From: Anthoceros angustus
Lineage: Eukaryota > Plantae > Anthocerotophyta
Assembly: GCA_010909165.1 (NCBI GenBank)
Contig: VJWM01000106.1
Location: 930,001 to 994,000 of the forward strand
DNA: 64,000 bases
Direction: 5' to 3'
The first letter of the stretch is position 1; the number at the start of each line of letters is the position of its first letter. Shown one piece after another: positions 7,218 to 41,500 of the stretch. The position numbers and the translations under genes are program-made. Below the pieces are notes generated by a model, which did not search any database, was not told where the DNA came from, and was given only the letters and a program-made list of their open reading frames with translations.

Positions 7218-7289
7218 GCCGTCTTAGCTCAGTGGTAGAGCGCGTGGCTTTTAACCACGTGGTCGTGGGTTCGATACCCACAGACGGCG
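7218..7289 (+). tRNA. trnK-UUU: tRNA-Lys, anticodon UUU, intronless
   Basis: Full cloverleaf: acceptor GCCGTCT/AGACGGC, D stem GCTC/GAGC, anticodon stem CGTGG/CCACG with loop CTTTTAA, T arm GTGGG-TTCGATA-CCCAC, discriminator G; no encoded CCA. Confidence 0.97.
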
Positions 7290-17348: not shown

Positions 17349-17741
17349 TGAAAGTTAAGACGACCACACCAAGGGTGCGAATGTTTGAATCATGAGCAGG
17401 TAAAACGCTTTGAGGATGTGAGCTTGTCCTTTTGCGAAAGGGTCTATAGATATATCAGCCTGGCATTGGCATATTCCTAAGATATCCTATTGGCAAGATA
17501 TGCCGAAATATCCAAAGAATACACTATAATATGCAAGGAATATGCTAAAGCATATAACTTGTGTTTATCCACTTAGTTAATGCTAACCATGTTTAATTAA
17601 CAGTAATCGATGCTTAATTAACATAACCACTTCATATTAATTAATTAATACTAATTACTTACTTAATGATAAGTCATTAGATTAATCAATGCTAGATATA
17701 AATGAATTTAACATAAATCAGCAGCACTATCTCTTTCTAGA
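17349..17741 (-). mobile_element. AT-rich insertion in the solo LTR, homologous (antisense) to the LTR of the DNMT/PHD Gypsy family
   Basis: The reverse complement shares blocks such as ttatgttaattaagcat, gttaattaaacatggttagca, ctaagtggataa, atatgcttt(a/g)gcatattccttgcatattatagtgtattctt and ccaataggatatcttaggaatatgcc with 19123-19654 and 61768-62311. It is absent from the other two giant LTRs. Ends are approximate and no clean TSD was found. Confidence 0.7.
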
Positions 17742-19122: not shown

Positions 19123-19685
19123 TGTCATGCCGTGTGATACTAATCTCTGCACTTGGGTTTAGTGTTTGATTAGCATTAATTAATCTAATTAATTATCTTT
19201 AAGTAAGTAACTAGGGTTAATTAATCTAAGGTGCTTATGTTAATTAAGCATTGATTAGTGTTAATTAATCCAAGGTGCTTATGTTAATTAAGCATTTATT
19301 AGTGTTAATTAAACATGGTTGCAATAGCTAAGTGGATAAGCTCAAGTAATATGCTTTGGCATATTCCTTGCATATTATAGTGTATTCTTAGGATAAGCTC
19401 AAGTAATATGCTTTGGCATATTCCTTGCATATTCTAGTGTAGGGTTTTGGCATATCTTGATCGATAGGATATCTTAGATGCGGTCTAGTATATATAGACC
19501 CTTCCATTGAGGACAAGCTCGGATCATAGCTTGTCCTCTAGATATCAATGCAAGGCGTTGTGAGGCCAAAGCTATGACTCGAGGCGATGTGTGAGGAATT
19601 TGCGTGTTGTTCGTGGGGAGGTGTGTTTGTGCCACGATGCGAGCTACTCCCTCCCCGTCTATACAAGCTATGATCCGCGTGCGCA
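19123..19685 (+). repeat. 5' LTR of the outer Gypsy (AT-rich)
   Basis: Highly similar to 61768-62311 up to ctactccctcc (19654). The end is uncertain; it possibly ends at cgtgcgca (about 19685). Confidence 0.75.
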
Positions 19686-19708
19686 GCTAGACAGATGGCA
19701 GGCTTAGC

Positions 19709-20110: not shown

Positions 20111-20499
20111 AGGCCATAGGGGCTAGCCTTTAAGGCCAACCAACCAAGGGAGAAACAAGAGTATTTTACCTTTTTGGATTCATGGGATATGGGATACGCC
20201 ATTTGATTTCACTTCGTCCAAAACTCAGGCACCCCATCCAAGTACGATCCACCCCATCCAAGTATCGATCCACTCCACGCCGCTATCTTGAGCCGTTTTC
20301 ATATCCAACTCACCCAGCTCACATTTTTTGGCATAGCCTGCAGTATTTGTATGCAATTTAACATGCAGATACTTAGAGGTTTCACTAATCACGATCTAAG
20401 AGGTAACGAATTTGGGACATGCTAACTGGAGGTTTCACTAATCACGATCTAAGATAGCGGGTGTTAACCTTGATTAAGGGTTTGATCTAGCCACTAACC

Positions 20500-22882: not shown

Positions 22883-23483
22883 ATGGCGACCTCGGAAGAC
22901 GGTATAGTGCTCGTGGAACTCTTTGGAGGCATCGCACGGCCAAGCGCAAGTGTGGCATCAGTGCGAAGATACGCGGCATTGTGACCCGGATCCAAAAGCA
23001 AGGATTGTGCCGTGGCGAGTAAGAGACTTGATGGGGAGTACCTAACCTCCGACGGGAGCCGCAAGGGTTACCGGGCGCCGATGGATGTTCGCATGATAGG
23101 GTTGTCCCATTTGAGTTGTCTGGGCAACCGGTGGACCTTGTCATCGCAGTTGGGAGTGTCAAGGACTATCCTCCGCAGTAAGGGTCAAGGTCTGAAGGAT
23201 CCACGAACAGCATTGTTCTATGACCTGATAAGGATCTTGCGCTTGATCCAGAAAGGGCAAGAAAGGGCAAGAAAGGCCTTGTGGATACATGTTGTAGAAT
23301 GTGCCAGCATGCATGAGCGTGAAGAAGCAAGTTCAGGAGGATTTTGCCACGATCCGAGGAGTGTTGGGTCAGGAGCTTCTATTGGATGCAGCTCAATTTG
23401 GTTTGAGGGCTCATAGGTTGAGGTCCATGTGGACTAACCTTGCTCCCTTGGAACATTTGAAGTGTGCGAGGTCGTTCACCAAG
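22883..23483 (+). pseudogene. C5 cytosine DNA methyltransferase (DNMT3-like), N-terminal half, motifs I-VIII, within the Gypsy polyprotein
   Basis: Motif I IVLVELFGGI (22916-22930); motif IV PVDLVIA(G)WECQGLSSA(G)KGQGLKDPRTALFYDLIRIL (Cys codon 23157-23159); motif VI GYML*NV (TAG at 23295 where ENV is expected); motif VIII LLDAAQFGLRAHRLRSMWTNL. Cut at 23483 by the nested element. Confidence 0.85.
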
Positions 23484-26400
23484 TGTGGTGACCACATGGG
23501 TACTCCGACCCCCTTGAAAAGGAGTGTTTTTTTGTTTTGTGTTTAAGTTGTGAGAATCGTGTGGGGTTGGAATGTGAAGTAGGTTAGGAAATAAGAAAAG
23601 TCTACTAGAGCCTAGTAGGAGGAAGAGAGTCTAGTCCCGATCCCGGCCAGAACCTTGGAGGGTTGGTGCTCGGGGTTGCTACGCGTTGCTAGGGCCGTTG
23701 ATAACAGGACTGTTGCTATGACAACAACTCGGGAGCCCTGCTATGGTAGCAACCAAGTCGAGTTATTTTCCGATAAATTGGAAAACCTATTTGGGCCAGG
23801 AAATACCCGAATGAATGTGAGGAACATGGAGGTACTTGATCCATGCCTTGGCAGACCTGGATCCTACCTATGGGTTGGACTCTTATGGAGGAGACTTTCA
23901 CCACCCATCCAGGATTCAAGAGCTCACCGAGGAGGAGTACGGCTATGCGAGCACAAGAGAGAGGAGTCCAGCTGAGGAGGTGGAGATTTTATGGGAGAGA
24001 TTGCCCAACCAGCCAAGAGGGAGGAGAGCAAGAGGAACATGGGGCTAGGAGGCCTAGGAGGCCTGGAGAGGTAATAGGGTAAGTGAGAAATAGCTAAAGG
24101 CCCATGTGTTATAGAGAATCTTATCTCTCATAGTGGATGTAATTAAGAGATAGGCCTCTAGGATTGGTAGGCTAAGGATTGGTATTTTGGCAAGCCAAGC
24201 GCTTTTGTCGATCTTGGGTATAAGGCGGCCCTCTTGATGAAATGTAAGCAATGTTGGTTTAAGGTCTTGGTGTTTGGGGGCACGGGGTTTGGGGGTACGG
24301 ATCCAGTCGTAAGTCTAGACACTCTCTTTGTCACAGGAGAAGCGAAGACCACCAAGTTGCCTAGATCCATGTGGCGGATCCGAGGGTGGTGGAAAGCAAG
24401 GGAGGGAGCCTTGAGGTCTCCTTGGAGGGAGTTTCCAAGGTCAAGAGGAAGGGGTTGTGAAGCCGGGAGGCTGTCGACTCTTCCTCATTCCCTCTCTAGT
24501 CTAGTACTCACCTTGTGTTTGAGTTTTCGGTGTGTTGGAGGTTTGGTGTTTGGAAAATAGAGGGAAAAGTGAGCCTGTGAGGAGAAGTGGAGAATGCCGG
24601 ACATGGAGAGTTGCTGATTGCTGTTTGAGAGGGTAAGAAGGAATGGAGAAGTCTAAGTGATGTTTGTGTTCTTGAAGAGGAGTGAGTGGAGGTTGAAGAT
24701 CCGTGAGTGGATGAGGGAATGATTGCGAGGTGGAACAAGTATTTTGAGAGTTGGTGAAGGTCTGTAAGGGCCTGGATGAGAACCTTGTAAGGCTGGAGAG
24801 GAGCGTGGTGAAAGTGGAGATTGAATGGGGCGGTGAGGTGTGAGAACAAGGAGAGTTGAAGAGAGTTCTGGGAAACTTGGAGTGTGGGAGGGGCTGAGAG
24901 GCACCTCAAGGGGCTGTGAGAGCCGGAGGTCAGATGGAGCTTGGAAGGTGAGCCGAAGGCTGGAGGAGAGACAAGGAAGTCAAGAAGTGCCGTAAGAGAA
25001 AGGGGTAGTTTGTGTGAGCCCTTTAGTGAGTTGTCCTAGGTTTAGGTTTAGAGATTAGGTTAGGGCTGCTTGGGTTGTCCATAAATAGTGTGTGGAAAAG
25101 GTGACACGTGGCTAACTCGATTGGTGGATCTAACTTTGTGGATAGATAAGAGAGAGGTGTCCAACCTTATCCACTTGATCCCCAAGTGGGTCCCACCTTC
25201 TAATAGCCAGACCGATCCCAAGGTGGACCCCACGCTAAAATAGAGGGTGGTTGCTAAGATAGCAAGCAAGATCTGCCGTTGCTAAGGTAGCAAGTCGCGT
25301 GGCTAAGATAGCCCCAGTCGAGTGTTGTTAGGATAGTAGCTGTCTAGCTAGATGTTTTGGTGTCTGTGTTTGGTTGGATTGGCTATGTTTTGGTTGTCTT
25401 GACACGAAATCACTCCCTTGGGTACGAATCTCAAGTCTACAACGATAAAGAGGGTAAATGTGGCCTCTTTGTGACCACTTGGTTTAGAAAATCACTCCAC
25501 ATTTTGGCGCCGTTCGAGTGTCATTGTTGTCAAGACCTTAGAGTAGACTAACCTTGTCTAGTAGTGTATTGGGAGTCTTGAGTGTGATACATGGATGCTA
25601 CCCATTGAGTCTCGAAAGTTCGACTCGGTAGAGAAGACTCCGGAAGAAGACAACGCTGTGGAGCGAGGCGAAGGGCTGCACCGAGCCGAGGAGAGCACAG
25701 TAAACGTGCTGGAGGAGCCAAGAAGCAAACAGCAGCTGCCTAGGGGACGATGCCATCCTTGTCTTCGACCTCCGTCGAACTTGTGCGGCTGCGTGAACTC
25801 AAGAACTTTTGGACAGTTGCTACAGAGATCCTGTTGCTAGACCAACAATCGCGTTCGGGATAGTGACGTCATGGCGACTTGTTCCTTTTGCAATAACTAC
25901 TGCGCCATACCCATGTATGGAGAGAAGAAGGGTATGAAGATCCGACGAGTTTGTTGAACGCTGAGCAACTAACCATTGCAAATCGTGAACTGGGATCCGC
26001 ATTCTCTTCTACGGAGTTCTTCGGAGGGCCAAGTGGTACAAGAGGAGTACCTCAAGGCATCAGACGAACCTTCAACGAACAAGAAAGCCTTTTGTGAGAG
26101 GTTCAGGAATAGATGTAGAAGGCTACGTGTTGTCAAAGTTGGAGTTTTGAGGAGAAGAAGGAAGGAGACCTTGCAAGCTTATGTTGAGAGGTTTCTTAAC
26201 TTGCGTGACGTAGTGGTCCTCACTCGATTCTGCCATTCGGTGGTTGCTAAGGGGTTAGGTTAGATGGGCCGACATGTGAGGCAAGCGGAGAAGGACGTAG
26301 ACAAGGCCATCAAGGCGGCACTCAACTACGAATCCAACCCTTGGACAAGAAGAAGCACAAGAAGGAAAAGAGCAAGAAGAAGAAGTCCAAGCGAGGGAAG

Positions 26401-29400
26401 AAGGACAAGGGATCTTCGTCGGAGGAGGAGGAGAGTGACTCCTCTCAAGACTCAGACTGGAGGACTCTTCCTGAGGATGGCAGACGGAGGAAGAATCCTC
26501 AAGACGAGAGAGGCAGAAGAAGAAGAAGGTTGGCGTGCTAGAAGAAACCAGGCTCGAGGATCAAGGGAGCTGGCGCTAAACAAGAGGTTGCTAGTGCTAA
26601 GAAGGAAGTGGAACAAGTCAAGAGGGAGTACTCAAGGCATCAAGAAAAGAACCTTCAACGAATCAAGAAAGCCTTTTGTGAGAGGTTCAGGGAATAGATG
26701 TAGAAGGCTACGTGTTGTCAAAGTTGGAGTTTTTGAGGAGAAGAAGGAAGGAGACCTTGCAAGCTTATGTTGAGAGGTTTCTTAACATGGATCGTAGTGG
26801 TCCTCACTCGATTTACAGTGCCATTCTGGTTGCTAAGGTTAGATCCCGAGATGGGCCGACATGTGAGGTCAGCAAAGACGAGACAAGGCCATCAAGGCGC
26901 ACTCAACTACGAAGAATCCAACTGGACAAGAAGAAGCACAAGAAGGAAAAGAGCAAGAAGAAGAAGTCCAAGCGAGGGAAGAAGGACAAGGGATCTTCGT
27001 CGGAGGAGGAGGAGAGTGACTCCTCTCAAGACTCAGACTGGAGGACTCTTCCTGAGGATGGCAGACGGAGGAAGAATCCTCAAGACGAGAGAGGCAGAAG
27101 AAGAAGAAGGTTGGCGTGCTAGAAGAAACCAGGCTCGAGGATCAAGGGAGCTGGCGCTAAACAAGAGGTTGCTAGTGCTAAGAAGGAAGTGGAACAAGTC
27201 AAGAGGGAGTACTCAAGGCATCAAGAAAAGAACCTTCAACGAATCAAGAAAGCCTTTTGTGAGAGGTTCAGGGAATAGATGTAGAAGGCTACGTGTTGTC
27301 AAAGTTGGAGTTTTTGAGGAGAAGAAGGAAGGAGACCTTGCAAGCTTATGTTGAGAGGTTTCTTAACATGGATCGTAGTGGTCCTCACTCGATTTACAGT
27401 GCCATTCTGGTTTGCTAAGGTTAGATCCCGAGATGGGCCGACATGTGAGGTCAGCAAAGACGAGACAAGGCCATCAAGGCGCACTCAACTACGAAGAATC
27501 CAACTGGACAAGAAGAAGCACAAGAAGGAAAAGAGCAAGAAGAAGAAGTCCAAGCGAGGGAAGAAGGACAAGGGATCTTCGTCCGGAGGAAGAATCAGAG
27601 GAGAGTGACTCTCTCAAGACTCAGACTGGAGGACTCTTCCTGAGGATGGCAAGACGGAGGAAGAATCCTAAGACGAGAGAGACGCAAGAAGAAGAAGGTT
27701 GACGCTAAGAAGAAACCAGAGGCTCGAGGATCAAGGGAGCGCTGTAAACAAGAGGTCGCTAGTGCTAAGAAGGAAGTGGAACAAGTCAAGAGGAGGTCAA
27801 GTCAGAAGAAGGTGCAACAAAGAAGAAATGAAGATGGAGGAAATGATGAGCAAATTCGAGAAGTTTCACCTCAACGCAAGGAGCATGAGAAGAGGAGAGA
27901 GCGCATCCGCTCGGGCTGCTTTGTTCCACTTGGCCAGCCAGCCACACCAGTCCAATGGCCAAGGTGCACATGCTCGCCACGAGGAGGAGGAAGAGGATCG
28001 CGGAGGATACCCGGATCCGGAGGTTTCCAGGACAACAGATTCCCAAGACTCCATCCATCGATGCTGCGAAATTCCATGGGGTGGCATTCGTAACAACCAA
28101 GTGCCTGTGGTTGCTAACCAAGCAACGGTGTGGTTCGGCTACAACAGAGGCTTTGGTCATTATGCAAATAGCTGTCATCGCCACAGACAGAGCCAATGGT
28201 GACTACGAACGTGCAAGACGCAAACAACAGGTCATGTGGCGGGAGTGTCACTTGCCCAAACCGAGGAAGGCTCAATTGCTCAACCACCTGTGGTTCAAGC
28301 ATCCTCAAGGAGCTGCGCCATGCACGTGGAGGATGCCCTATGGCTTTGGGAGGATGCGAAGCCATGGTGTTGCGAGCTAGATGGACTGGGGGTGCAGGAG
28401 ACTACTACGGAGGCTGCAGCCATGGTCATGCGCACTAGGAATGAAAAGCTAGGAGGAAGCTGCGGAAGAAGAAAGAGACGGAGGTGCAATCACCAAAGTC
28501 CAAGAGAGCACTCCAAGCCCGGAGGGAACGGATCTAGAGGAGACACTTGAGAAGGAGAACCCAGAAGGAAGAATCAAGGAGTGAATCGCCTGGGGCCATC
28601 GAGAAAAGAAGTTCCGGAAAAGGGAGAGGAAACCCGAGTTTCCACCGGACGTCGAAGTCATGGAGATGATAGAGGAGGAATTGACCAAGACAAAGTCTCG
28701 AGCCTGATCCAGAGGCAGAAGTCCTCTCGTTAGCAGTTGCTAAGCAAACAACCGGACGTTGTTGCTAAAGCAACCGCTAGGGAAGAATCGAGGACCATTT
28801 AACCTTGCCAAGCCATCATGGATCAATTTGCCATCACGCTTGGTCAACTATTGAAGGACAACCTACGCAACAAGTTCGAGGCCTTGCAAGCGCAACCCAA
28901 GAGGAAGAGGCGATTGCCCAAGCCGGGACCAAGGGTGCTGACCCTACAACAACTAGTGTCCATGATAGACCAAGGGCCCGGAGTCGCAAGTGGAGATCAG
29001 TGTCATCAAGCGGGTTCCCGGATCGGATCCGGTGAACATCATGACGAAGCAAGGAAGCTTGGGTTGGACATTGAGCATACCACAGGTCGAGATTGGCGAC
29101 ATGTCAAAAATGCAGCACTGGAGAGCGAAGGAGTAACCACCATCATAGGGACCATTCCCTATCTCATGGACTATGTGGTTATCCGGACAAGGCGCCAGTG
29201 ACATCCTATTGGGAAGGACCGGCCGTGGCTCAAGATGCAAGATGACTTGGGGAGGAAGGAAGTGGCTTTTAAGCCAATGGATTGGGACCCCAAGACGAAG
29301 GAGGCGAATTTGTTTGAGTTGGAGCAGGATACCCTCGTGGGGAGACTCCTACTGAACGGAAGGATACACATCGTGGAGAAACATCCGACTGGAGGAAGAA

Positions 29401-32400
29401 GGGGAACTGGACAAATTTCCTTTTGCACATATCGCATGGTCGATGAGGAGGAAGAGTATAGGAGGGATATCCCTTACTCCCTCAATTTGGTGGACCGCTT
29501 TGGTTCATGGAGGACGCACCAGAGGAGGAGCTGCTAACAGGCTTGCTAAGGAAGCAGGCGCTTGCTAAGGAAGCACAGATTCACGACGGTTGCTAAGGAA
29601 GGGGCGAGGGGTCGACAGCAGTGAGGGTGAGCCAGGATCATTCGATTCACCTCGAGGACCTGGAGTGGGGATGAGGGAAGAGGACCTCGTGAACCGGAGG
29701 AAGGGTTTGGTGAGAGTTCAGCACCGTGGAGCGAGAATGGGTACAAGCGGACGAGATTAAGGATGTGGAGGTATTGCCCGAAGGTGCTGAAGTTTGCACT
29801 GGAACCAGTTGGAAGAAGGAATGAAACAGCTCCTTCGAGTTCATCGACGTGTTTGCCTTCGAGGTGAGAGATATGAAGGGATTCCCAAGAAGTGGGGAGC
29901 ATAGGATCGATTTGGAGCCGTGAGCGACTCCGTCGATTCCCAATACATGAACCCAAAGTACTCACTCAAGGTGAAGGAGCAGCATTGTACTTGAAGGCGG
30001 ACGTCATCTATCCAATCGTCAACACGGTGGGTGGCTCCGATCGTGTGGTTCAAGAAGCACGGAAAGATTCGAGTATGTACCGGAGGAAGCTCAACAAAGC
30101 AACCAAGAAGGACCATTTCCCCCGCCATTCATCGACAACATCCCGGACTTGGTGGTCGAAGATGTGTACTCGTTCTTGGCTGGGTACAATCATGCACTTG
30201 AGAGTGACTGCCTCTAACGCCTTCACGGATTGGGGACCTTCGCTTACAAGAGAAGTGCGTTGATTGACGGGCGCCGTTCCTTCATGCGGAGCATGGTTGA
30301 GATCTTCAAGGAGTATCTCCACAAGTTCATGGAGGTATTCCTAGATGATTTTGTGTGTTTGGGAGTGTGGAGGAGCACCGGATCACTTGCGTGCTTGGCG
30401 AGTGTCGTGAAACTCAACTTGCCTACATCCCGAGAAATGCTACTTTGGCATGCGGAGGGATTTTGTTGGGCAATTTCACGAGGCATCAAGTTGATCCGCA
30501 TAAGGTGAAGATGATTGTTGCCCAAGCCCCAACAACTCTCAAGGAACTCGGGGTTCCTTGGCATGGTGGGCTACTACGCTTTGTAACTTTGCTAGGAGGG
30601 CTGCTCCGACCATTGAGGAAGGACCAAGAGTGGACGACGGTGAGGAGGCAGATTTCAAGATTTGAGGACCACGTTGGTAACAGCCCCAACCCTCAAGGGA
30701 CCGGATTGGAGCAAGAAGTTCCATGTTTTACGTGGATGTTTCCGCCCGCCATTGGTACGTCTTGAGCCAGTGGATAAGAAGAGGGACTACCCGATCTACT
30801 ACCCTCGGGCAACTCACCGATCACGGAGCGCAAGTACACAACAATCGAAAGGGAAGCCCTTGGGATGGTGTATTCGATGAAAGTTTCGTCATTATCTCCT
30901 CTCCTATGAGTTTGTGTTTCCATGTTGACCATTTTGCTCTCAAGCATCTTGTCAACAAGGCGGATCTTCGGTCGCATAGCTCGTTGGATCTTCTGTGCAA
31001 GAGTTCACCTTCACGGTGGAGACACGTGAGGGGAGGAAGCATGTGAACGCCGACTACTCCCGACGGAGAAGGTGGAGTGATCAAGAAGATCATTTTCCGG
31101 ATGAAGCTTTCTTCGGAGGAGGATGAGGAGAGTGCTAGGCCCAATGCCAAGTTGATCGGAAACGGAGGTGCACCAAATGAGAAGGGAGGAGAAGTTTTGA
31201 GCCACCTATGAGGAGGTCTTTCGCTTTTAGGTCGATACCAAGACTGTACAACAGAGGTTGTTCCTATACTTCTCGCACTGTTGGCGAGACAAGTGGTAGG
31301 CCGATGGAGTTGAGAGGTTGTGGGTCAAGGATGGTCAAAAGGACCGGGTTCTCGGCCTTGCATGAGGAGGAGGCCGGAGGTCACCACAACGTGACTGTAA
31401 GAAGATCTTAGGCGGTGGTATTGGTGGCCAACCTTGCATAGATGCTAGGGAGTTCATCAAGCGTTGTGATGCATGTCAAAGGGTTGAAGCCAACCAGACC
31501 ACAGGGCCATTGGTCCCTATCCTAGCCTTGGCGCCCTTTGAGAAGTGGGGGATTGACTTCGTTGGGCCGATTCAGCCCAAGACCAAGGGGAGCCAATCCA
31601 ATATAACAGCGGACTCTGCATGGTGGCCAAGCTCAAGCCCTGCCCGTGGACACAGCGAATGTGGTGGCCAGGTTCTTGTTTGAGCACATCATCACAAGGT
31701 ACGGGTGCCCGTTGGAACTGGTTAGCGACAGGGGTACCCATTTCATCAACGAGGTGATCTCACACATGGTGAGGTACTTCAACATCAGCCATAGGAAGAC
31801 CACCCCCTACAACCCCAAAGCAAATGGACTCACAGAGAAAGCTAATGGATTGCTTTGCAGGATCCTTAACAAGTTGACCATCACCTACACCTACGAAAGG
31901 AACCGGAAGCTTCACTCGGCGTTGTGGGCGATAGGAGAAGGTGACCACAGCAGACTCCCTACTACCTCACCTATGGGCACTCACATGCCCATTGAGTTTG
32001 AAGTGCCAACGTTGAGAGTCCAAGAGCATAGAGGATGACGGTGGAGAGCCATTGGAGAGGCTCATAGGCTTTGTTCAGACATGGAGAGTAGGAACAAGCC
32101 TTGGCAGTCCTGAGCGTCAAGGAAGAGGAAGGAATGGCATGACCTAAGGCAAAAACAAGAGTACGTTGTTCGGGACTTGGCGTTCTTTGATGACACAGTA
32201 CATGCACTTCCCAGTCGCATCTTAGATGGATGGGTCCCTACGGTGCGCAAGTGTTCGACAATGGATCCATACACTGCGCAACTTGATGGACTGCAACCAG
32301 GTCAATGGTTGGCGCGTGAAGAAGTATTACCAATAAGTTGGCGGGACGCCAACAAATGAGAAGGGAGTATGTGGTGACCACATGGGTACTCCTCGAAAGG

Positions 32401-34379
32401 AGTGTTTTTGTTTTGTGTTTAAGTTGTGAGAATCGTGTGGAGTTGGAATGTGAAGTAGGTTAGGAAATAAGAAAAGTCTACTAGAGCCTAGTAGGAGGAG
32501 AGAGTCTAGTCCCGATCCTGGACGGAACCCGGAGGGTTGGGCTGCTCGACCTTAACGCGTTGCTAGGGCCGTTGATACAGGACTGTTGCTATGACAACAA
32601 GACGGAGCCTGTTGCTATGGTAGCAACCAAGTCGGAGTTATTTTCCGATAAATTCGGAAAACCTATTTGGGAAATCACAGAAATACCCGAATGGAAGTGG
32701 AACATGGAGGTACTTGATCCATGCCTTGACGGCCGGATCCTACCTATGGGTTGGATTCTTATGGAGGAGACTTCACCATCTATCCGATTCAAGAGCTCAC
32801 CGAGGAGGAGTACCCGGACTGTCAGGCAGCACAAGAGAGAGGAGTCCAGCGAGGAGGAGATTTTATGGGAGATTGCCCAACCAGCCAAGAGGGAGGAGAG
32901 CAAGAGGAGAACATGGCTAGGAGGCCTAGGAGGCCTGGAGAGGTAATAGGGTAAGTGGCCCACAGAAATGGCTAAAGGCCCATGTTATAGGTATCAAATC
33001 TTATCCTCTCATAGTGGGAATTGATAGATAGGCCTCTAGGACTTGGTAGGCTAAGACTGATTGGTATTTTTGGCAAGCAGTTTGTGGGCTGATCTTGGGT
33101 ATGAGGCAGCCCTCTTGATGAAATGTAAGCAATGTTGGTTTAAGGTCTTGGTGTTTGGGGGAAAACGGGGTTTGGGGGTACGGATCCGTGTAAGTCTAGA
33201 CTCCTTTGTCACGGAGAAGCCAAGACCACCAAGTTGCCTAGATCCTGTGGCCGATCCGCAAGGGTGGTGGAAAGCAAGGGAGGGAGCCTTGAGGTCTCCT
33301 TGGAGGAGTTTCCAAGGTCAAGAGGAAGGGGTTGTGAAGCGGGAGGCTGTCCGGACTCTTCCTCATTCCCTTCACTAGTCTAGTACTCACCTTGTGTTTG
33401 AGTTTTTCGTGTGTTGGAGGTTTGGTGTTTGGAAAATAAGAGGGAAAAGTGAACTGTGAGAGAAGTGGAGAATCTTTGGACATGGAGAGTTGATCAGGAG
33501 AGGAGGACTGGAGAAGTCATGAGTGCGTTTGTGTTCTTTGAAGAAAGAGGTGGAGGTTGAAGATCCGTGAGTGGATGAGGCGGAATGATTATGGGAGGTA
33601 GGTGAACAAGTATTTTGAGAGTTGGTGAAGGCTGTAAGGGCCTGGATGAGAACCTTGTAAGGACGGAGGTCTTGTGTCATGAAAGTGGAGATTGAATGGG
33701 GGGCGTTGAGTGTGAGAACAAGGAGAGTTGAAGAGAGTTCTTTGGGGAGACTTGGAGTGTGGGGAGGATGCGAGAGGCACCTCAAGGGGCTGTGAGCTGG
33801 AGAGGTCATGGAGCTTGGAAGGTGGTGAAAGGCGGAGGAGAGACAAGGAAGTCAAGAAGTCTTGCAAGAGAAAGGGGGTGGTTGTGTGTGCAACCCTTTA
33901 TCTTTGTGAGTTGTCCTAGGTTTAGGTTTAGAGATTAGGGTTAGGGCCGGCTGCTTAGGTTGTCCATATAGTGTGTGGAAAGGTGACACGTGGCTAACTC
34001 GATTGGTGGATCTAACTTTGTGGATAGATAAGAGAGAGGTGTCCTTATCCACTTGGATCCCCAAGTGGGTCCCACCTTCTATTAATAGCCGGACTGATCC
34101 CAAGGTGGACCCCACTCTAAAATAGAGGGTGGTTGCTAAGATAGCAACCGGGTACAGTTGCTAAGGTAGCAGGTCGGCTAAGATAGCCGTGTCCGAGTGT
34201 TGTTAGGATAGTAGCACAGTGCATCTGCTAGATGTTTGGTGTGAGTCTGTGTTTGGTTGGATTGGCTATGTTTGGTTGTCTTGACACGAAATCACTCCCT
34301 TGAGTACGAATCTCAAGTCTACAACGATAAAGAGGGTAAATGTGGCCTTTGTGACCACTTGGTTTGAAAATCACTCCAC
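23484..34379 (+). mobile_element. Nested non-chromovirus Ty3/Gypsy element (Athila/Tat-like), full length, 2-kb LTRs, inserted in the DNMT domain
   Basis: LTRs 23484-25501 and 32370-about 34379 start TGTGGTGACC and end CACTCCAC(A). PBS TGGCGCCGTT at 25505; PPT GAGAAGGGAGTA at 32358-32369; TSD CCAAG on the left and degenerate CCAG on the right. Internal gag with a zinc-knuckle remnant (about 28135-28180), RT (FMEVFLDDF about 30330), RNase H (about 30700-31050) and integrase (FEKWGIDFVGP about 31540; YNPKANGLTEK). Confidence 0.9.
26045..27792 (+). repeat. Tandem triplication of a unit of about 581 bp within gag of the 2-kb-LTR element
   Basis: gagta(c)ctcaaggcatc starts at about 26045, 26626 and 27207; copies 2 and 3 are nearly identical over their first halves. 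Confidence 0.9.
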
Positions 34380-34380
34380 C

Positions 34381-34693
34381 AGCGACCTAATCAGTTGTCA
34401 AGGATGTAGCATCGGAAGGCATGCCCAACAAGTCATCAAGGCGACAAGCCGCACTTCCCGTGAACACGCTGGACACCCCATGGCGCTTGGCCAACCTTTG
34501 TGTCCAAGTCCAAGTCTTACGCCTTGGGAACCATGGCCGGCGTTGTGGTGGGACATGGCGAGGCCTTGGGAGAGCCAACACGAGAGAGGAGTTGGCCATG
34601 GGATTCTTTAGACCCACGAAGACAAGGAGTGAGAAGGAATGGTGTCGATTGCTTGGGCAAGCATTTGACGTGAACATGATGGTGGTTGTTTAG
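34381..34693 (+). pseudogene. DNMT3-like domain, C-terminal half (target-recognition region, motifs IX-X)
   Basis: Resumes after the nested element and ends NTREELAMGFFRPTKTRSEKEWCRLLGQAFDVNMM, which parallels DNMT3A EMERVFGFP...RQRLLGRSWSV (motifs IX/X). Confidence 0.75.
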
Positions 34694-34849
34694 CTGTCGC
34701 TTACCAACGAAACCGGAAGGCGGGGTTGAAGCGGGGTTCGGTGGGTGAAGGACATTCCGACTCGCATCTCAGAGAAGGCGAGTTTGGAGGGCAAGGAGGC
34801 GAGCACGTAGAGGCGTGCAAGCCATCGAGCCACACCACATGAGTGGTTA

Positions 34850-35780
34850 ACGTCGAGTTGAAGAGCAATCAAGCGTCAGCTAAAGGAGTTGTTGGAGGCA
34901 TCGCGACATGTGTTTGCTTTCACGCTTGCGGAGATGGGGAAGTACACCAAAGGGAAGTTCCACATAGAACGACCACGGATGAACCGGTGTTCGCAGAGGC
35001 ACAGGCTCGCAAGGCAGTGGGATTTGGTTGAGAATCGATGCCAAGAGCTTCTCAAGCTAGGGGACGATCTAACTCGCGATGTGCAGGTGACATGCTTCCG
35101 AAAAGAAGGATGAGAATGGATTGTGGACGGAGAGGAGAATGTGGTGACTATCGGCCGTTGAGCAGCGAATCCACATGACCACTATCCCATGCCGATGGTC
35201 AAGAGATCTTTGACACCATTGGGTCTTAAGTTCTTCTCAACATTGGACTTGAGGCTAGGGTTTCACCAAGTAGAGATCGTAGAAGACAAGAAGAGAAAGC
35301 GGCGTTGCAGATTGCTTATGCAGAGTGGAACTACATGCCATTGGTTGAAGACATCAACGCGTTCAAAGATACATGGACAATGAGCTCAAGGACTTGCCTT
35401 TCGCCAAGTGCTACATTGATGATGTCATCATCTTCAGCAATACCTTTGAGGAGCATCTACAACATCTTTGAGCAGTCTTTGCTAGATTGGCAGGCTGTGG
35501 GTTGAAGGCCCATCCAGGGAAGTGTCGATTTGGAGAGGACAAGGTGTTGTACTTGGGTCATTGGATCACGCTGGATCTCGCATGCCACCAAGGTGGAGGC
35601 AATGTGGCGCATTCCGACCAAACGACATCTCAAGTTGAGGGCATTCTTGGGGTTGGCGGTTACTACGGGAAGTTCATTCCGCGGATGAGAGGATTGCGGC
35701 CATTGAATGACTTGTTGAAGAAGTTGGTGACTTGGCGTTGGACTCAAGAGGAGTCGCTTTCATGGAGTTGAAGGGTAGAC
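34850..35780 (+). pseudogene. Reverse transcriptase of the outer Gypsy
   Basis: CQELLKLG; RMCGDYRPL; KFFSTLDLRLGFHQVEI; EWNYMPFG; FAKCYIDDVIIFS (YIDD); GLKAHPGKCRFGEDKVLYLGH. Ends ELKGR at the Copia insertion and continues LMSSPILGHP at 57585. Confidence 0.9.
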
Positions 35781-38554: not shown

Positions 38555-41500
38555 GTGGCGACTTTCGGTGATGGGCCGGTACGCGCCACAATCCGTCGTT
38601 GTGGTATGGAGTCCGTTCCCAAGAGAATGATAGCTCCGTTTGCGCTTGCCGATTCTCACCTTTCTTGGTCCACTTCACCTTAACACACTCAATCTTCGTT
38701 TACACCCAGCTATTTATAACGTTCACGCAGGCCGGTGTAGCGTTTGAGACGTTTAAACGCTTCGTTCGTCACTCGTTTCTTGATCCGTTCCTCTCCGCTC
38801 TCTCTACACTTATCAACCTTGGAAAGAAGCATGGTGGCTGATCGGGACCTCCTCGTTGCTCGCGGGCCTCTCCGTCCGGGCTCTGCACACCCTCCCAAAG
38901 TACCTCCCGGCTCACGTTCGGTCCGCTCGGCGTTGGACCGCGCTCTCGGCGAACAAGGGTCCTCGATCCTCCCTGCACACACCACCACGTTAAGTCCGTC
39001 ACGGGACCTTGATCGATCTCTCCGGGGTCGTGCACCTTTCGGTGACTCGGGACTCGCGTTAACAAGGCGTAAGGTGCAGAGCAGCATCAACACCAAGAGA
39101 AAGATGCTTTACTAGGCGCCTCGGCCCTCTTATCTGCATGGCGTCTTTATTACACCCCTATTACGGTGATGGCATCGGTATACCTAATGGCGCCTACCAT
39201 CCTCCCCTATCTCCTTCGTGGTGGGTGAAATTTGGGAAGGTCACAGGCCCCTCGGGATGGGTGGTCAATCCCCGTCAGCGGTTGTGGCGCTCCCAATCGG
39301 ATGATCCGTGAGGCGGGGCCCCTCCTCTCCGGAATCACATCGGGTTGGGCTCTGGCGTGATCGACAACCGTTACACGTCATCCTCCCTGGCCTCCCCACA
39401 GGTCCCGCCGGTGGGGCCACCCGGCTATCTCCTCCCCTAAGCGTAAGTCGAGGGGCTCCTCCTTCTTGCCTGATGGGACCTCGGGGTCTGACTCTGACTT
39501 CGAGTCCGGCAACTGAGTCGGCCGGCTAGGTCCCCTTGTCTCAGGGTCGGACCTCGGGTCCGTCTTCTCAGTCCGGACCTCGGTCCGGACTTCTTGAGTC
39601 CGGACTTGAGTCGGTCTTCCTTGGTCCGGACCTCGAGTCGGACTCGCCCAGGTTTCCTCCCTCACAGGGACTCCTCGTGGCTCTCCCTCAGTCCTTCCTT
39701 CCCGATCGCCGGGGCTCCTCGTTGGCCCCTCCTTCCATGGTGAGGTGCGGGGTGCTTACCTCGATCGCATCGCGCTCCTCGTTGCTCCTCCTCCTCTCCG
39801 CTCCCTCGTCTCCGCCCCAGGTCCACGTGGCCACTATCCCGTGGCCTTCTTCCCTCGCCTTCTTGGCCGTCGGTCAGTCCTCGTGAGGTGGTGCCTCACG
39901 CCTTGAGGAGCTCGGCGTGGTAATAGGCAAAGTCAGATCGACAAATTGCCTCTTCCACGTGTGCGGGCACCCGATACTCCCTCGCCATAAGTGTTCGGCT
40001 GGGTGTTGTTGGCGCTCTCTCTCCTGCTTGGGCAGGCGGCTCATCAGGCGGCCTCGGTCACCTCCTGCAGCCTTCTTGCTCCACTCCTCCTCCCTTTGTC
40101 TGCTTACCGGCGCCATGGGCCCGCCTTTCTCCGTAATCGGATGGGCAGCTTCCTCCTCTGGCGCTCTCCTCCCTCCGTTCACGTGCTCCGCCACTCCCTC
40201 TCCAATCGGTGGTATATCCTCCAGGCCCCACTTCTTCCGGTTCATACGCAGCAGCGTCCAACTCCTTGGATAGTCGCGATTTTCCTCCGTCTTGAGGGGC
40301 CGGGCTCTCTATTTTCTCGAGTCGTGGATTCTCGTTGAGAATCACTGCTGCTCCGCGCATCTTGGGTTGTAGCTCCAGTGTCCTTCTTATCCTCCATCTG
40401 CTGCGCCTCTCCTCTACTTCCTGCGGTACTCGGAGATCTCCTATCTCCCAGTCTTGGCCTCCATCTCCTCCTTGCCTTGCACTCCATAGCCCTTGTGCCT
40501 TCAAGTCACTGCCTCTGACTCTCTCCACGGTTCGATCCGTCGGTGGTGATCCGGTCGCTCTTTACCCGGCTTCCGCCTCCTTTGCCTTCACCTTAGCCTC
40601 GCCCCGGCTTGGTGTAGGTCTGGCCCGCCGCCTCCCGAGTCGAGCTCTCTCCGCCTCCCTCTCGCTTCCTTCCCCCTCCTCTTTGCGGTCCTCGCCCGCT
40701 TGGGCCTCCTGCTTGCTTTGTTCGCGTGAGAACCTTAACATCTGTGAACCGCTCGGGCCTCGCTCCGCCACGTTTCCTTCCTCGATCAGCGAGGACTCCG
40801 CCTTTCCTTTGCCTCACAGGCGCCTTCACTTGCTCTTGGGTTCCACCATCCTCCTCGGGTGGCCTCCACTTCCACAGGTCTTCTCTGCCACAGAGGCCCC
40901 AAAGCATTCCTCCATGGCGGTAGCAGACTTCGCCGTGTTTCTTCCACGGCCCCAGTGAGGGAAAGTCCTTGGTGGGGCGGCATTTCTCGTCAAGGACCTC
41001 CATCTGATCGGAGTCGGGGGGTTCTCGGACCTAATCGGGACCCTCGGGTCACAGTGGTGGTCAGGACTCACCCTCTTGGCCCTCTTGGCCTCTCCTTTGT
41101 GCCCTCTTTCTCCACAGGGCTCGGAGGAGGTGAGGGGTCAGGCAAGCCCTTTGCCCCTTCACAGGGGCAGGACCCGGCTCGAGGTGGGGCTGCGCGGTGA
41201 CCTCCGCTCCTTGGGCGTCCCTTTACGCCCTCCTTCGCCTCTTGACCTCTTGCCACTCGTGGGCGGGGGTAAGTACGGCACCTTCGAGTCTTTGCGTTGG
41301 TAAGCGGCACCGTCTTCGCCTCTTGACTCCCGGGTTCGTCGGGCTCGGCGGTAGTCGTGGTTGTTGCTGCTGCCGGTGGGGCCATAGCGCCCTCATCGAC
41401 TCCCTCTGTCTTGGTGCTCGGAGGGCACCAAAAGGAGGGAAGGAATCTCCTCCCAAACTTCCACAGGTGGTGAGGGGTTCGCTCCAGCGTATGGGTCAGG

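Follow-up and report, generated by a model that had tools for sequence, protein, structure and literature searches.

The question raised by this locus was whether a retrotransposon of a land plant encodes its own C5 DNA methyltransferase (DNMT) and, if it does, what the enzyme would do for the element. The window, meaning the whole stretch of 64,000 nucleotides that was analyzed, comes from the hornwort Anthoceros angustus; the element in question occupies positions 19123−62416, or 8472 bp after removal of three nested insertions. An earlier reading of the bases, here called the original prediction, had placed a DNMT3-like C5 methyltransferase between the protease (PR) and the reverse transcriptase (RT) of a Gypsy element. 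The profile scores, the fold comparison, and the domain map agree with it, and the presence of a C5-methyltransferase domain between the PR and RT of a Ty3/Gypsy element is confirmed. We read the locus as a dead copy of an element whose active copies would likely methylate their own new cDNA, and we give this reading a probability of about 0.6.

All six C5-methyltransferase motifs named in that prediction (I, IV, VI, VIII, IX, and X) were located where it had put them, in canonical order (Table 1). The catalytic Cys of motif IV and the RxR of motif VIII are kept, and motif VI is interrupted by a stop codon. A 10-bp unit is present twice at 23251−23270, and the reading frame shifts across the pair, as had been proposed for the disturbed frame ahead of motif VI. 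Searching with C5-methyltransferase profiles gave a divided answer. Pfam PF00145, the check named in the original prediction, matched none of the six single frames; the DNMT domains of relatives, intact copies included, also fall mostly under the Pfam cut-off. A profile built anew on the full-length domains of 192 relatives, with no window sequence among them, matched both halves, with 65.0 and 24.5 bits for the 5′ half and 12.6 and 7.7 bits for the 3′ half; these relatives had been found by a query that contained a 44-residue piece of the window. As controls, 600 shuffled frames each scored no higher than 3.3 bits, and none of the 1152 and 1938 other window frames exceeded 2.2 bits. Because the 5′ half covers positions 2−205 and the 3′ half positions 224−323 of the 327 in this profile, in order, we conclude that the nested element between them splits one single domain, as predicted. 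The frameshift-aware score of the 3′ half was 47.7, above 100 of 100 shuffles. The protease was not significant in any single frame; its frameshift-aware score likewise exceeded all 100 shuffles, and its tile ranked best of 254. For the presumed gag region, no significant match to the gag of relatives was found.

The domain is DNMT3-like by sequence profile and predicted fold, and nearer to DNMT3 than to other C5 enzymes. When the profile was compared with PDB sequences, the top 27 of 47 matches were DNMT3A, DNMT3B, or DNMT3C, and HhaI matched at E = 0.16. An AlphaFold model of the intact relative P0003 (predicted local distance difference test score 96.6), which stands in for the window copy in the fold comparison, was submitted to Foldseek; all matches listed were DNMT3 structures, the best with E = 3e-21 and a template modeling score of 0.73. 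The motifs are unpermuted, unlike those of DRM. Phage methylases gave E = 1e-6 at best, over one third of the domain; five weak partial matches and no close donor were found in phage genomes, and none of 53 pattern matches in viral contigs encodes a relative. The catalytic Cys of motif IV and the Glu of motif VI are each present in 192 of 192 relatives, the RxR is nearly invariant, and motif I, which binds S-adenosylmethionine, is kept. The dipeptide of motif IV is EC in 121 relatives, PC in 53, SC in 9, DC in 5, AC in 3, and CC in 1. The proline at this position is usual in C5 enzymes and is not the nucleophile. The original prediction had taken EC as a mark of decay; because EC is the commonest state, and is also found in unbroken open reading frames (ORFs) of relatives, we conclude that it is a family trait.

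Relatives of the domain are numerous. A query with the frame of motifs IV, VI, and VIII identified 3 of 25 candidates, all three of them Gypsy polyproteins, and the profile made from these matched 270 of the 7991 long proteins that were scored. Among cluster representatives it matched 1868 at E < 1e-3, of which 387 reached E < 1e-30. In the protein set, DNMT follows RT in all 120 proteins having both domains, among them proteins of Chromochloris, Hariotina, Tetradesmus, and Haematococcus; the chlorophyte DNMT lies mostly between RNase H (RH) and integrase (INT). Five proteins, including two from Closterium and one from Cymbomonas, have a long N-terminus and then DNMT, with no RT ahead of it. 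One of these, Closterium GJP34393.1, is an unbroken gag-knuckle-PR-DNMT ORF that contains GWECQG and ENV and passes PF00145. Five of 576 metagenome matches were relatives (loci L001−L005). In L001−L004 (GC 37−43%), DNMT precedes RT and is uninterrupted by insertions but stop-ridden, and in L002 it continues in frame into the start of RT. Locus L005 is of the chlorophyte type, with RT-RH-DNMT-INT-PHD in a single 2115-codon frame. The frames of the chlorophyte-type RT-RH-DNMT-INT proteins and of the Closterium PR-DNMT are unbroken; those of the window are broken. A PHD finger was found in 140 of 260 relatives scanned. In 72 of these 140 (P0004 and its kin) a tail of more than 250 residues follows it, with a DPxxGxG motif in 16 tails and a TSPP-like motif in 8. 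We take the tails with these motifs to resemble amino (N6/N4) methyltransferases; that of P0004 had no Pfam match. If this were true, such elements would carry two methyltransferases, one of them of DNMT3 type, in contrast to the DNMT4-like EpiLTRs discussed below.

Contigs of sequencing runs X1−X3, which are labeled as three organisms, cover DNMT as they do RT. In X3 the DNMT coverage figures were 3453 and 2120, versus 3975 for RT, and the 3′ half was covered less (1139 in X3 and 112 in X2); we do not take such figures as copy numbers. Up to 47 different contigs were found at one motif VIII site. The first nested element was nearly uncovered in X2 and X3, and no contig of X1−X3 joined across it, a lone listed joint (23430 to 35020, side 25) being disregarded. 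An unrooted DNMT tree of element sequences was built with 41 rows, consisting of 16 chosen proteins, 20 taken at random from 114, four loci, and the window, whose row had X at frame breaks and one 8-residue piece out of frame. In this tree the window joined L001, L002, L004, both Closterium proteins, and P0193 with support of 99/93. Protein P0036, likewise PR-DNMT, sits among the chlorophyte type, and therefore the DNMT slot in Pol has likely changed more than once. In an unrooted RT-RH tree of 28 rows, likewise of element sequences, the window grouped with L001−L004 at 100/99, on a long branch. By these sequence comparisons, the DNMT is a domain of the family that was inherited with the RT, and not a one-off capture.

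The domain appears to have been under purifying selection, as judged from small and partial data. In the in-frame DNMT pieces, 9 of 14 listed majority differences, drawn from the best 40 of 75 rows of the contig comparison, were synonymous, versus an expected fraction of 0.26 (p = 0.003). Between L002 and L004, dN/dS was 0.36 for DNMT and 0.41 for RT, which indicates weaker selection than the values of <0.2 in PMC5890265. Of the proposal that PR-DNMT-RT forms one ORF with dN/dS below 1, the ratio held, and the unbroken frame was found neither in the window nor in L001−L004.

The window copy is a dead element, because three nested insertions interrupt its coding parts, breaking the DNMT, the link between RT and RH, and the RNase H. 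The first of them, 10.9 kb long, has long terminal repeats (LTRs) that are 86% alike and an imperfect target duplication (CCAAG/CCAG). Its sister LTRs differ by 111 gaps versus 76 mismatches, whereas a host gene in the window reads cleanly, which points to under-polished repeats in the assembly. Because repeats in the assembly are noisy, the frameshifts and the TAG codon are weak evidence of death. The original prediction had based its verdict of a probably dead copy on that codon and on EC; the verdict itself stands on the insertions. The DNMT regions of L001−L004 contain five to seven stops per copy, mostly TAG or TAA, the pattern that C-to-T decay would leave in dead copies carrying methylation.

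The remaining parts of the element give the order PR-DNMT-RT-RH-INT-PHD, with a DDE integrase of the Ty3/Gypsy type. Its ends, TGTC...GACA, and the 4-bp target duplication are those of Ty3/Gypsy elements, and one contig of run X4, which is possibly RNA, passes from left-flank-like into right-flank-like sequence. The element does not have a single pair of simple direct LTRs; its repeats are split in the layout A1-coding-B1-A2-B2. Neither this layout, nor the PHD finger, nor the priming signal described next was part of the original prediction. No tRNA-type primer site follows A1 in the window. In priming of the Tf1/Sushi type, the 5′ end of the RNA is complementary to a site just after the 5′ repeat. 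Here the sequence directly after A1 is the exact complement of a stretch within A1 that lies ~30 nt downstream of TATATATAG, and only 1 of 2000 random 30-mers matched A1 equally well. Locus L002 has a different sequence and the same priming geometry, with 17 of 18 pairs and a fold z of −3.9; its exact-match control was weaker (31 of 2000). Loci L002 and L003 share the layout of the window, the TGTCATG start, 4-bp flanks, the G-run before B1, and the TATA-duplex spacing, whereas their repeats gave no blastn match to those of the window. The A2-B2 join is blunt in L002 and L003 and nearly blunt in the window. The priming geometry is that known from Tf1/Sushi and Tcn1 (PMC6317226), with the predicted RNA 5′ end serving as the primer.

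Three further observations concern the repeats and the leader. The self-primer lies inside a perfect 11-bp hairpin (19509−19538), the 5′ arm of which precedes the predicted start; in the RNA, only the A2 copy could fold in this way, and its primer sequence might then be masked. The stretch at 17400−17700 (minus strand) is 82−86% like the middle of repeat A and lies at the end of another element (~14196−17800). In its coding part that element is similar to the nested element at 38555−53250. The stretch lacks the TGTC start and the self-primer; an exchange of repeat sequence between families may therefore have taken place. A 10-bp array is also present in the leader of the DNMT element, at 19699−19886.

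The repeat layout is compatible with a two-LTR circle that was opened internally, and we propose the following cycle. The RNA would start ~30 nt past the TATA-like box in A1, and its first 15 nt would pair just after A1, priming reverse transcription without a tRNA. The plus strand would start at the purine run before B1, which would make B+A the true LTR and [BA]-coding-[BA] the linear cDNA. End-to-end joining of this cDNA would form a two-LTR circle, and if the DDE integrase then opened the circle at the inner B|A boundary, the product would be A-coding-B-A-B. Retroviral integrase, which can cut palindromic two-LTR circle junctions, offers a precedent only (PMC1180852). As a part of Pol that is packaged together with RT and integrase, the DNMT would methylate this extrachromosomal DNA, presumably at CG, given its likeness to DNMT3, and the PHD finger would have a putative role in reading chromatin at the insertion site. 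SymbioDIRS-Dnmt3, a related retrotransposon DNMT3, methylates CG de novo in yeast, and cDNA methylation was proposed for it (PMC5890265).

Several results weigh against this account. KnitGypsy-Dnmt3 gave no methylation in yeast, a result that its authors call inconclusive (PMC5890265); motif IV has EC where PC is usual in 121 of the 192 relatives; and no land-plant copy with an unbroken PR-DNMT-RT frame was found, the frames of the window and of L001−L004 all being broken. The observed/expected CpG ratio is 0.78 in the element and 0.62 in host genes, which is no special loss of CpG. The fold z of the window duplex is −1.9, the B1|A2 boundary in the window is degenerate and not a clean copy of the ends, no repeats were detected in L005, the sole chlorophyte-type locus, and both the circle and the transcript start are deduced and not observed. 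The gene tree bearing on the hornwort host (below) was built without ferns and without other hornworts. Depletion of CpG was also considered as a trace of self-methylation; none was visible, nor would it be separable from host methylation. The EC dipeptide, the inactive KnitGypsy-Dnmt3 (PMC5890265), and the lack of CpG loss peculiar to the element would suit a domain retained for binding DNA or RNA or for base flipping, one that transfers methyl groups rarely or never and aids packaging, circularizing, or integration of the cDNA. We consider this unlikely, because some loss of catalytic residues would then be expected, and the Cys and the motif VI Glu are universal among the 192 relatives, with the RxR nearly invariant and motif I kept. 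Still less probable is an active enzyme that works on chromatin at or after integration, on the target or the insert, silencing the copy and sparing the host under guidance by PHD. DNMT3 is a de novo enzyme, the PHD finger is present in the window and in over half of the proteins scanned, and self-limitation was raised by de Mendoza et al. (PMC5890265); however, the nearest substrate of a part of Pol would be the cDNA in the particle, and Anthoceros agrestis owns MET1, CMT, DRM, and DNMT3 (PMC10952607). Loss of the host DNMT3, as in Symbiodinium, was rejected, because A. agrestis lists an expressed AaDNMT3 (PMC10952607).

The noise of the assembly in repeats, the silence of Pfam on single frames, and the first census, in which DNMT preceded RT in 0 of 120 proteins with both domains, could be taken to mean that a fragment of a host DNMT3 was captured once or that the locus is an assembly chimera. 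This is highly improbable and is refuted by the contig coverage in three runs, the same order in L001−L004, and the congruent DNMT and RT-RH trees; the PR-DNMT of Closterium and the absence of introns also speak against it. The repeats could have arisen without a circle, if extra template switches produced a linear cDNA terminating in A and B or if tandem copies recombined. No circle was observed, and the inner B1|A2 boundary of the window differs from the ends, as such an origin would allow; we nevertheless regard it as doubtful, because the priming site after A1, the purine run before B1, and the blunt A2-B2 join fit a B+A LTR joined end to end in two unlike elements, and a single 4-bp duplication brackets the whole unit. 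We suggest, only tentatively, a green-plant-wide Ty3/Gypsy lineage, ranging from chlorophytes to hornworts, with an active DNMT3 that moved between two slots in Pol. Its land-plant branch would self-prime without a tRNA and integrate, in place of a linear cDNA, a two-LTR circle that the DNMT has methylated beforehand and that the DDE integrase cuts internally. If true, LTR elements would have a third way of integrating, one that has stayed out of sight since neither LTR finders nor Pfam pick up such elements.

Table 1. Parts of the DNMT element and its insertions, numbered from the first base of the window
Feature	Position	Strand	Remarks
Target-site duplication GATC (4 bp)	19119−19122 (left); 62417−62420 (right)	+	Adjoins both element ends
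Repeat A1	19123−19662	+	Starts TGTC; TATA-like box ~19489; 91% alike to 61763−62311
Predicted RNA 5′ end (self-primer)	19520−19534	+	15/15 complementary to 19663−19677; start site predicted
Self-priming primer-binding site	19663−19677	+	Directly 3′ of A1; without tRNA-type site
Presumed gag region, broken	20700−21900	+	Assigned by position
Aspartic protease, frameshifted	22150−22490	+	Frameshift-aware score 29.1 vs. shuffle maximum 19.8
DNMT3-like domain, 5′ part (motifs I, IV, VI, VIII)	22883−23483	+	Motif reading and profile scores
Motif I, VELFGGI	22913−22933	+	Read in sequence
Motif IV, DLVIA	23134−23148	+	Read in sequence
Motif IV, WECQGLSSA	23151−23177	+	KGQGLKDPRTALFYDL next, from 23180; motif IV spread over three frames
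Motif VI, GYML*NV	23283−23303	+	TAG stop at 23295−23297
Motif VIII	23382−23441	+	Read in sequence
Nested LTR retrotransposon (2-kb LTRs) splitting DNMT	23484−34378	+	LTRs 23484−25500 and 32370−34378
DNMT3-like domain, 3′ part (target-recognition region, motifs IX, X)	34379−34693	+	Profile and frameshift-aware scores
Motif IX	from 34583	+	Read in sequence
Motif X	34646−34672	+	Read in sequence
Reverse transcriptase, frameshifted	~34844−35780	+	Pfam RVT_1, E = 8.5e-11
Nested LTR element, Copia-like internal sequence (by eye)	35781−57584	+	217-bp LTRs 98% alike; further elements inside
RNase H, 5′ part	57585−57770	+	Domain comparison
Nested element with terminal inverted repeats, within RNase H	57771−59893	unassigned	Repeat comparison
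RNase H, 3′ part	59894−60070	+	Domain comparison
DDE integrase, frameshifted	60400−61400	+	Domain comparison
PHD finger	61460−61610	+	Pfam PF00628, E = 8.9e-9
Short purine run AGGGG, likely polypurine tract	61670−61674	+	Directly 5′ of B1; G-run at equivalent place in L002
Repeat B1	61675−61760	+	91% alike to 62320−62410
Repeat A2	61763−62311	+	91% alike to A1
Repeat B2	62320−62416	+	Ends GACA, then GATC

Elsewhere in the window, a PMT-type methyltransferase gene (PF03141 family; ~3960−6442, minus strand) encodes a protein 74% identical to one of Nothoceros aenigmaticus and at most 63% identical to 19 other land-plant proteins; it pairs with the Nothoceros protein at 100/100. In this tree, built without ferns, the placement points to a hornwort other than Nothoceros as the likely host and speaks against Selaginella or a moss, both of which were rejected on that ground. 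This gene and the gene at 1−1600 (minus strand) are compact host genes with short introns. The latter encodes a GTPase with a GYPNVGKS motif, which we take to be RbgA/YlqF-like. A 43-nt inverted repeat (91%; 6241−6283 and 6833−6875) brackets the 5′ region of the PMT gene, and a tRNA-Lys(UUU) gene lies at 7218−7289. The nested elements contain tandem units of ~581 bp (26039−27793) and ~490 bp (49282−50716). Stretches like 5S rRNA near 20230 and 59120 were dropped, because Rfam returned only a tRNA.

Elements of this kind have been published since 2018, with algae and protists as hosts; as far as we searched, the land-plant lineage is new to print, and Gypsy elements with DNMT3 are linked only to Klebsormidium or to 'streptophytes'. 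A bioRxiv preprint (10.64898/2026.05.21.726589) and PMC12344493 place Gypsy or LTR elements with DNMT3 in 'streptophytes', citing the 2018 paper, and no mention of such elements was found in the accessible text of the hornwort papers PMC10952607 and PMC7027989. Our literature search, which mostly did not extend to subscription papers, found no DNMT-bearing Gypsy element in hornworts or other land plants, although supplements may list more hosts; within the same limit, it found nothing on the replication of split-LTR Gypsy elements. Interest is tempered in that the kind is already published, the copy is dead, and the role of the enzyme is predicted. Plants silence retrotransposons by cytosine methylation, and here a land-plant family carries the writer enzyme itself. 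The hornwort family, the Closterium ORFs, and hundreds of chlorophyte-type relatives form a large lineage whose naturally intact enzymes could be assayed.

The element is best filed as a member of the KnitGypsy-Dnmt3 kind from Klebsormidium nitens (PMC5890265), a likeness also drawn by the original prediction and based here on the published description rather than on a tree. Both are of Gypsy type with an intronless, unpermuted Dnmt3-like domain, a DIRS-like repeat layout combined with Gypsy domains, and purifying selection; they differ in that the window element is from a hornwort, a land plant. The domain lies in Pol in KnitGypsy-Dnmt3 and probably does so in the window element, whose frames are broken. 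The accessible text on KnitGypsy-Dnmt3 does not say where in Pol the DNMT lies, nor does it mention a PHD finger, EC, self-priming, or a target duplication. The EpiLTRs of Cymbomonas and Euglena (bioRxiv 10.64898/2026.05.21.726589) are also Gypsy-like and likewise combine a C5 DNMT with a domain that reads chromatin; however, their DNMT is sister to DNMT4 and accompanied by DAM and a chromodomain, whereas that of the window is DNMT3-like and accompanied by PHD. The self-priming Ty3/Gypsy elements Tf1/Sushi and Tcn1 likewise do without a tRNA site, but they are chromoviruses with ordinary paired LTRs. The accessible text of PMC6317226 names neither a DNMT nor split repeats for them. SymbioDIRS-Dnmt3 of Symbiodinium (PMC5890265) has its Dnmt3 in Pol, as the window element probably does, and shares the A-coding-B-A-B repeats; it has a DIRS tyrosine recombinase, whereas the window element has a DDE integrase, TG...CA ends, and a 4-bp duplication. 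Given that integrase and duplication, the element does not belong to DIRS/PAT, and the domain map, which was drawn without a profile search for a recombinase, leaves no room for such a gene. The split repeats and the self-priming signal together provide a testable model for how an element with a DDE integrase could gain a DIRS-like layout.

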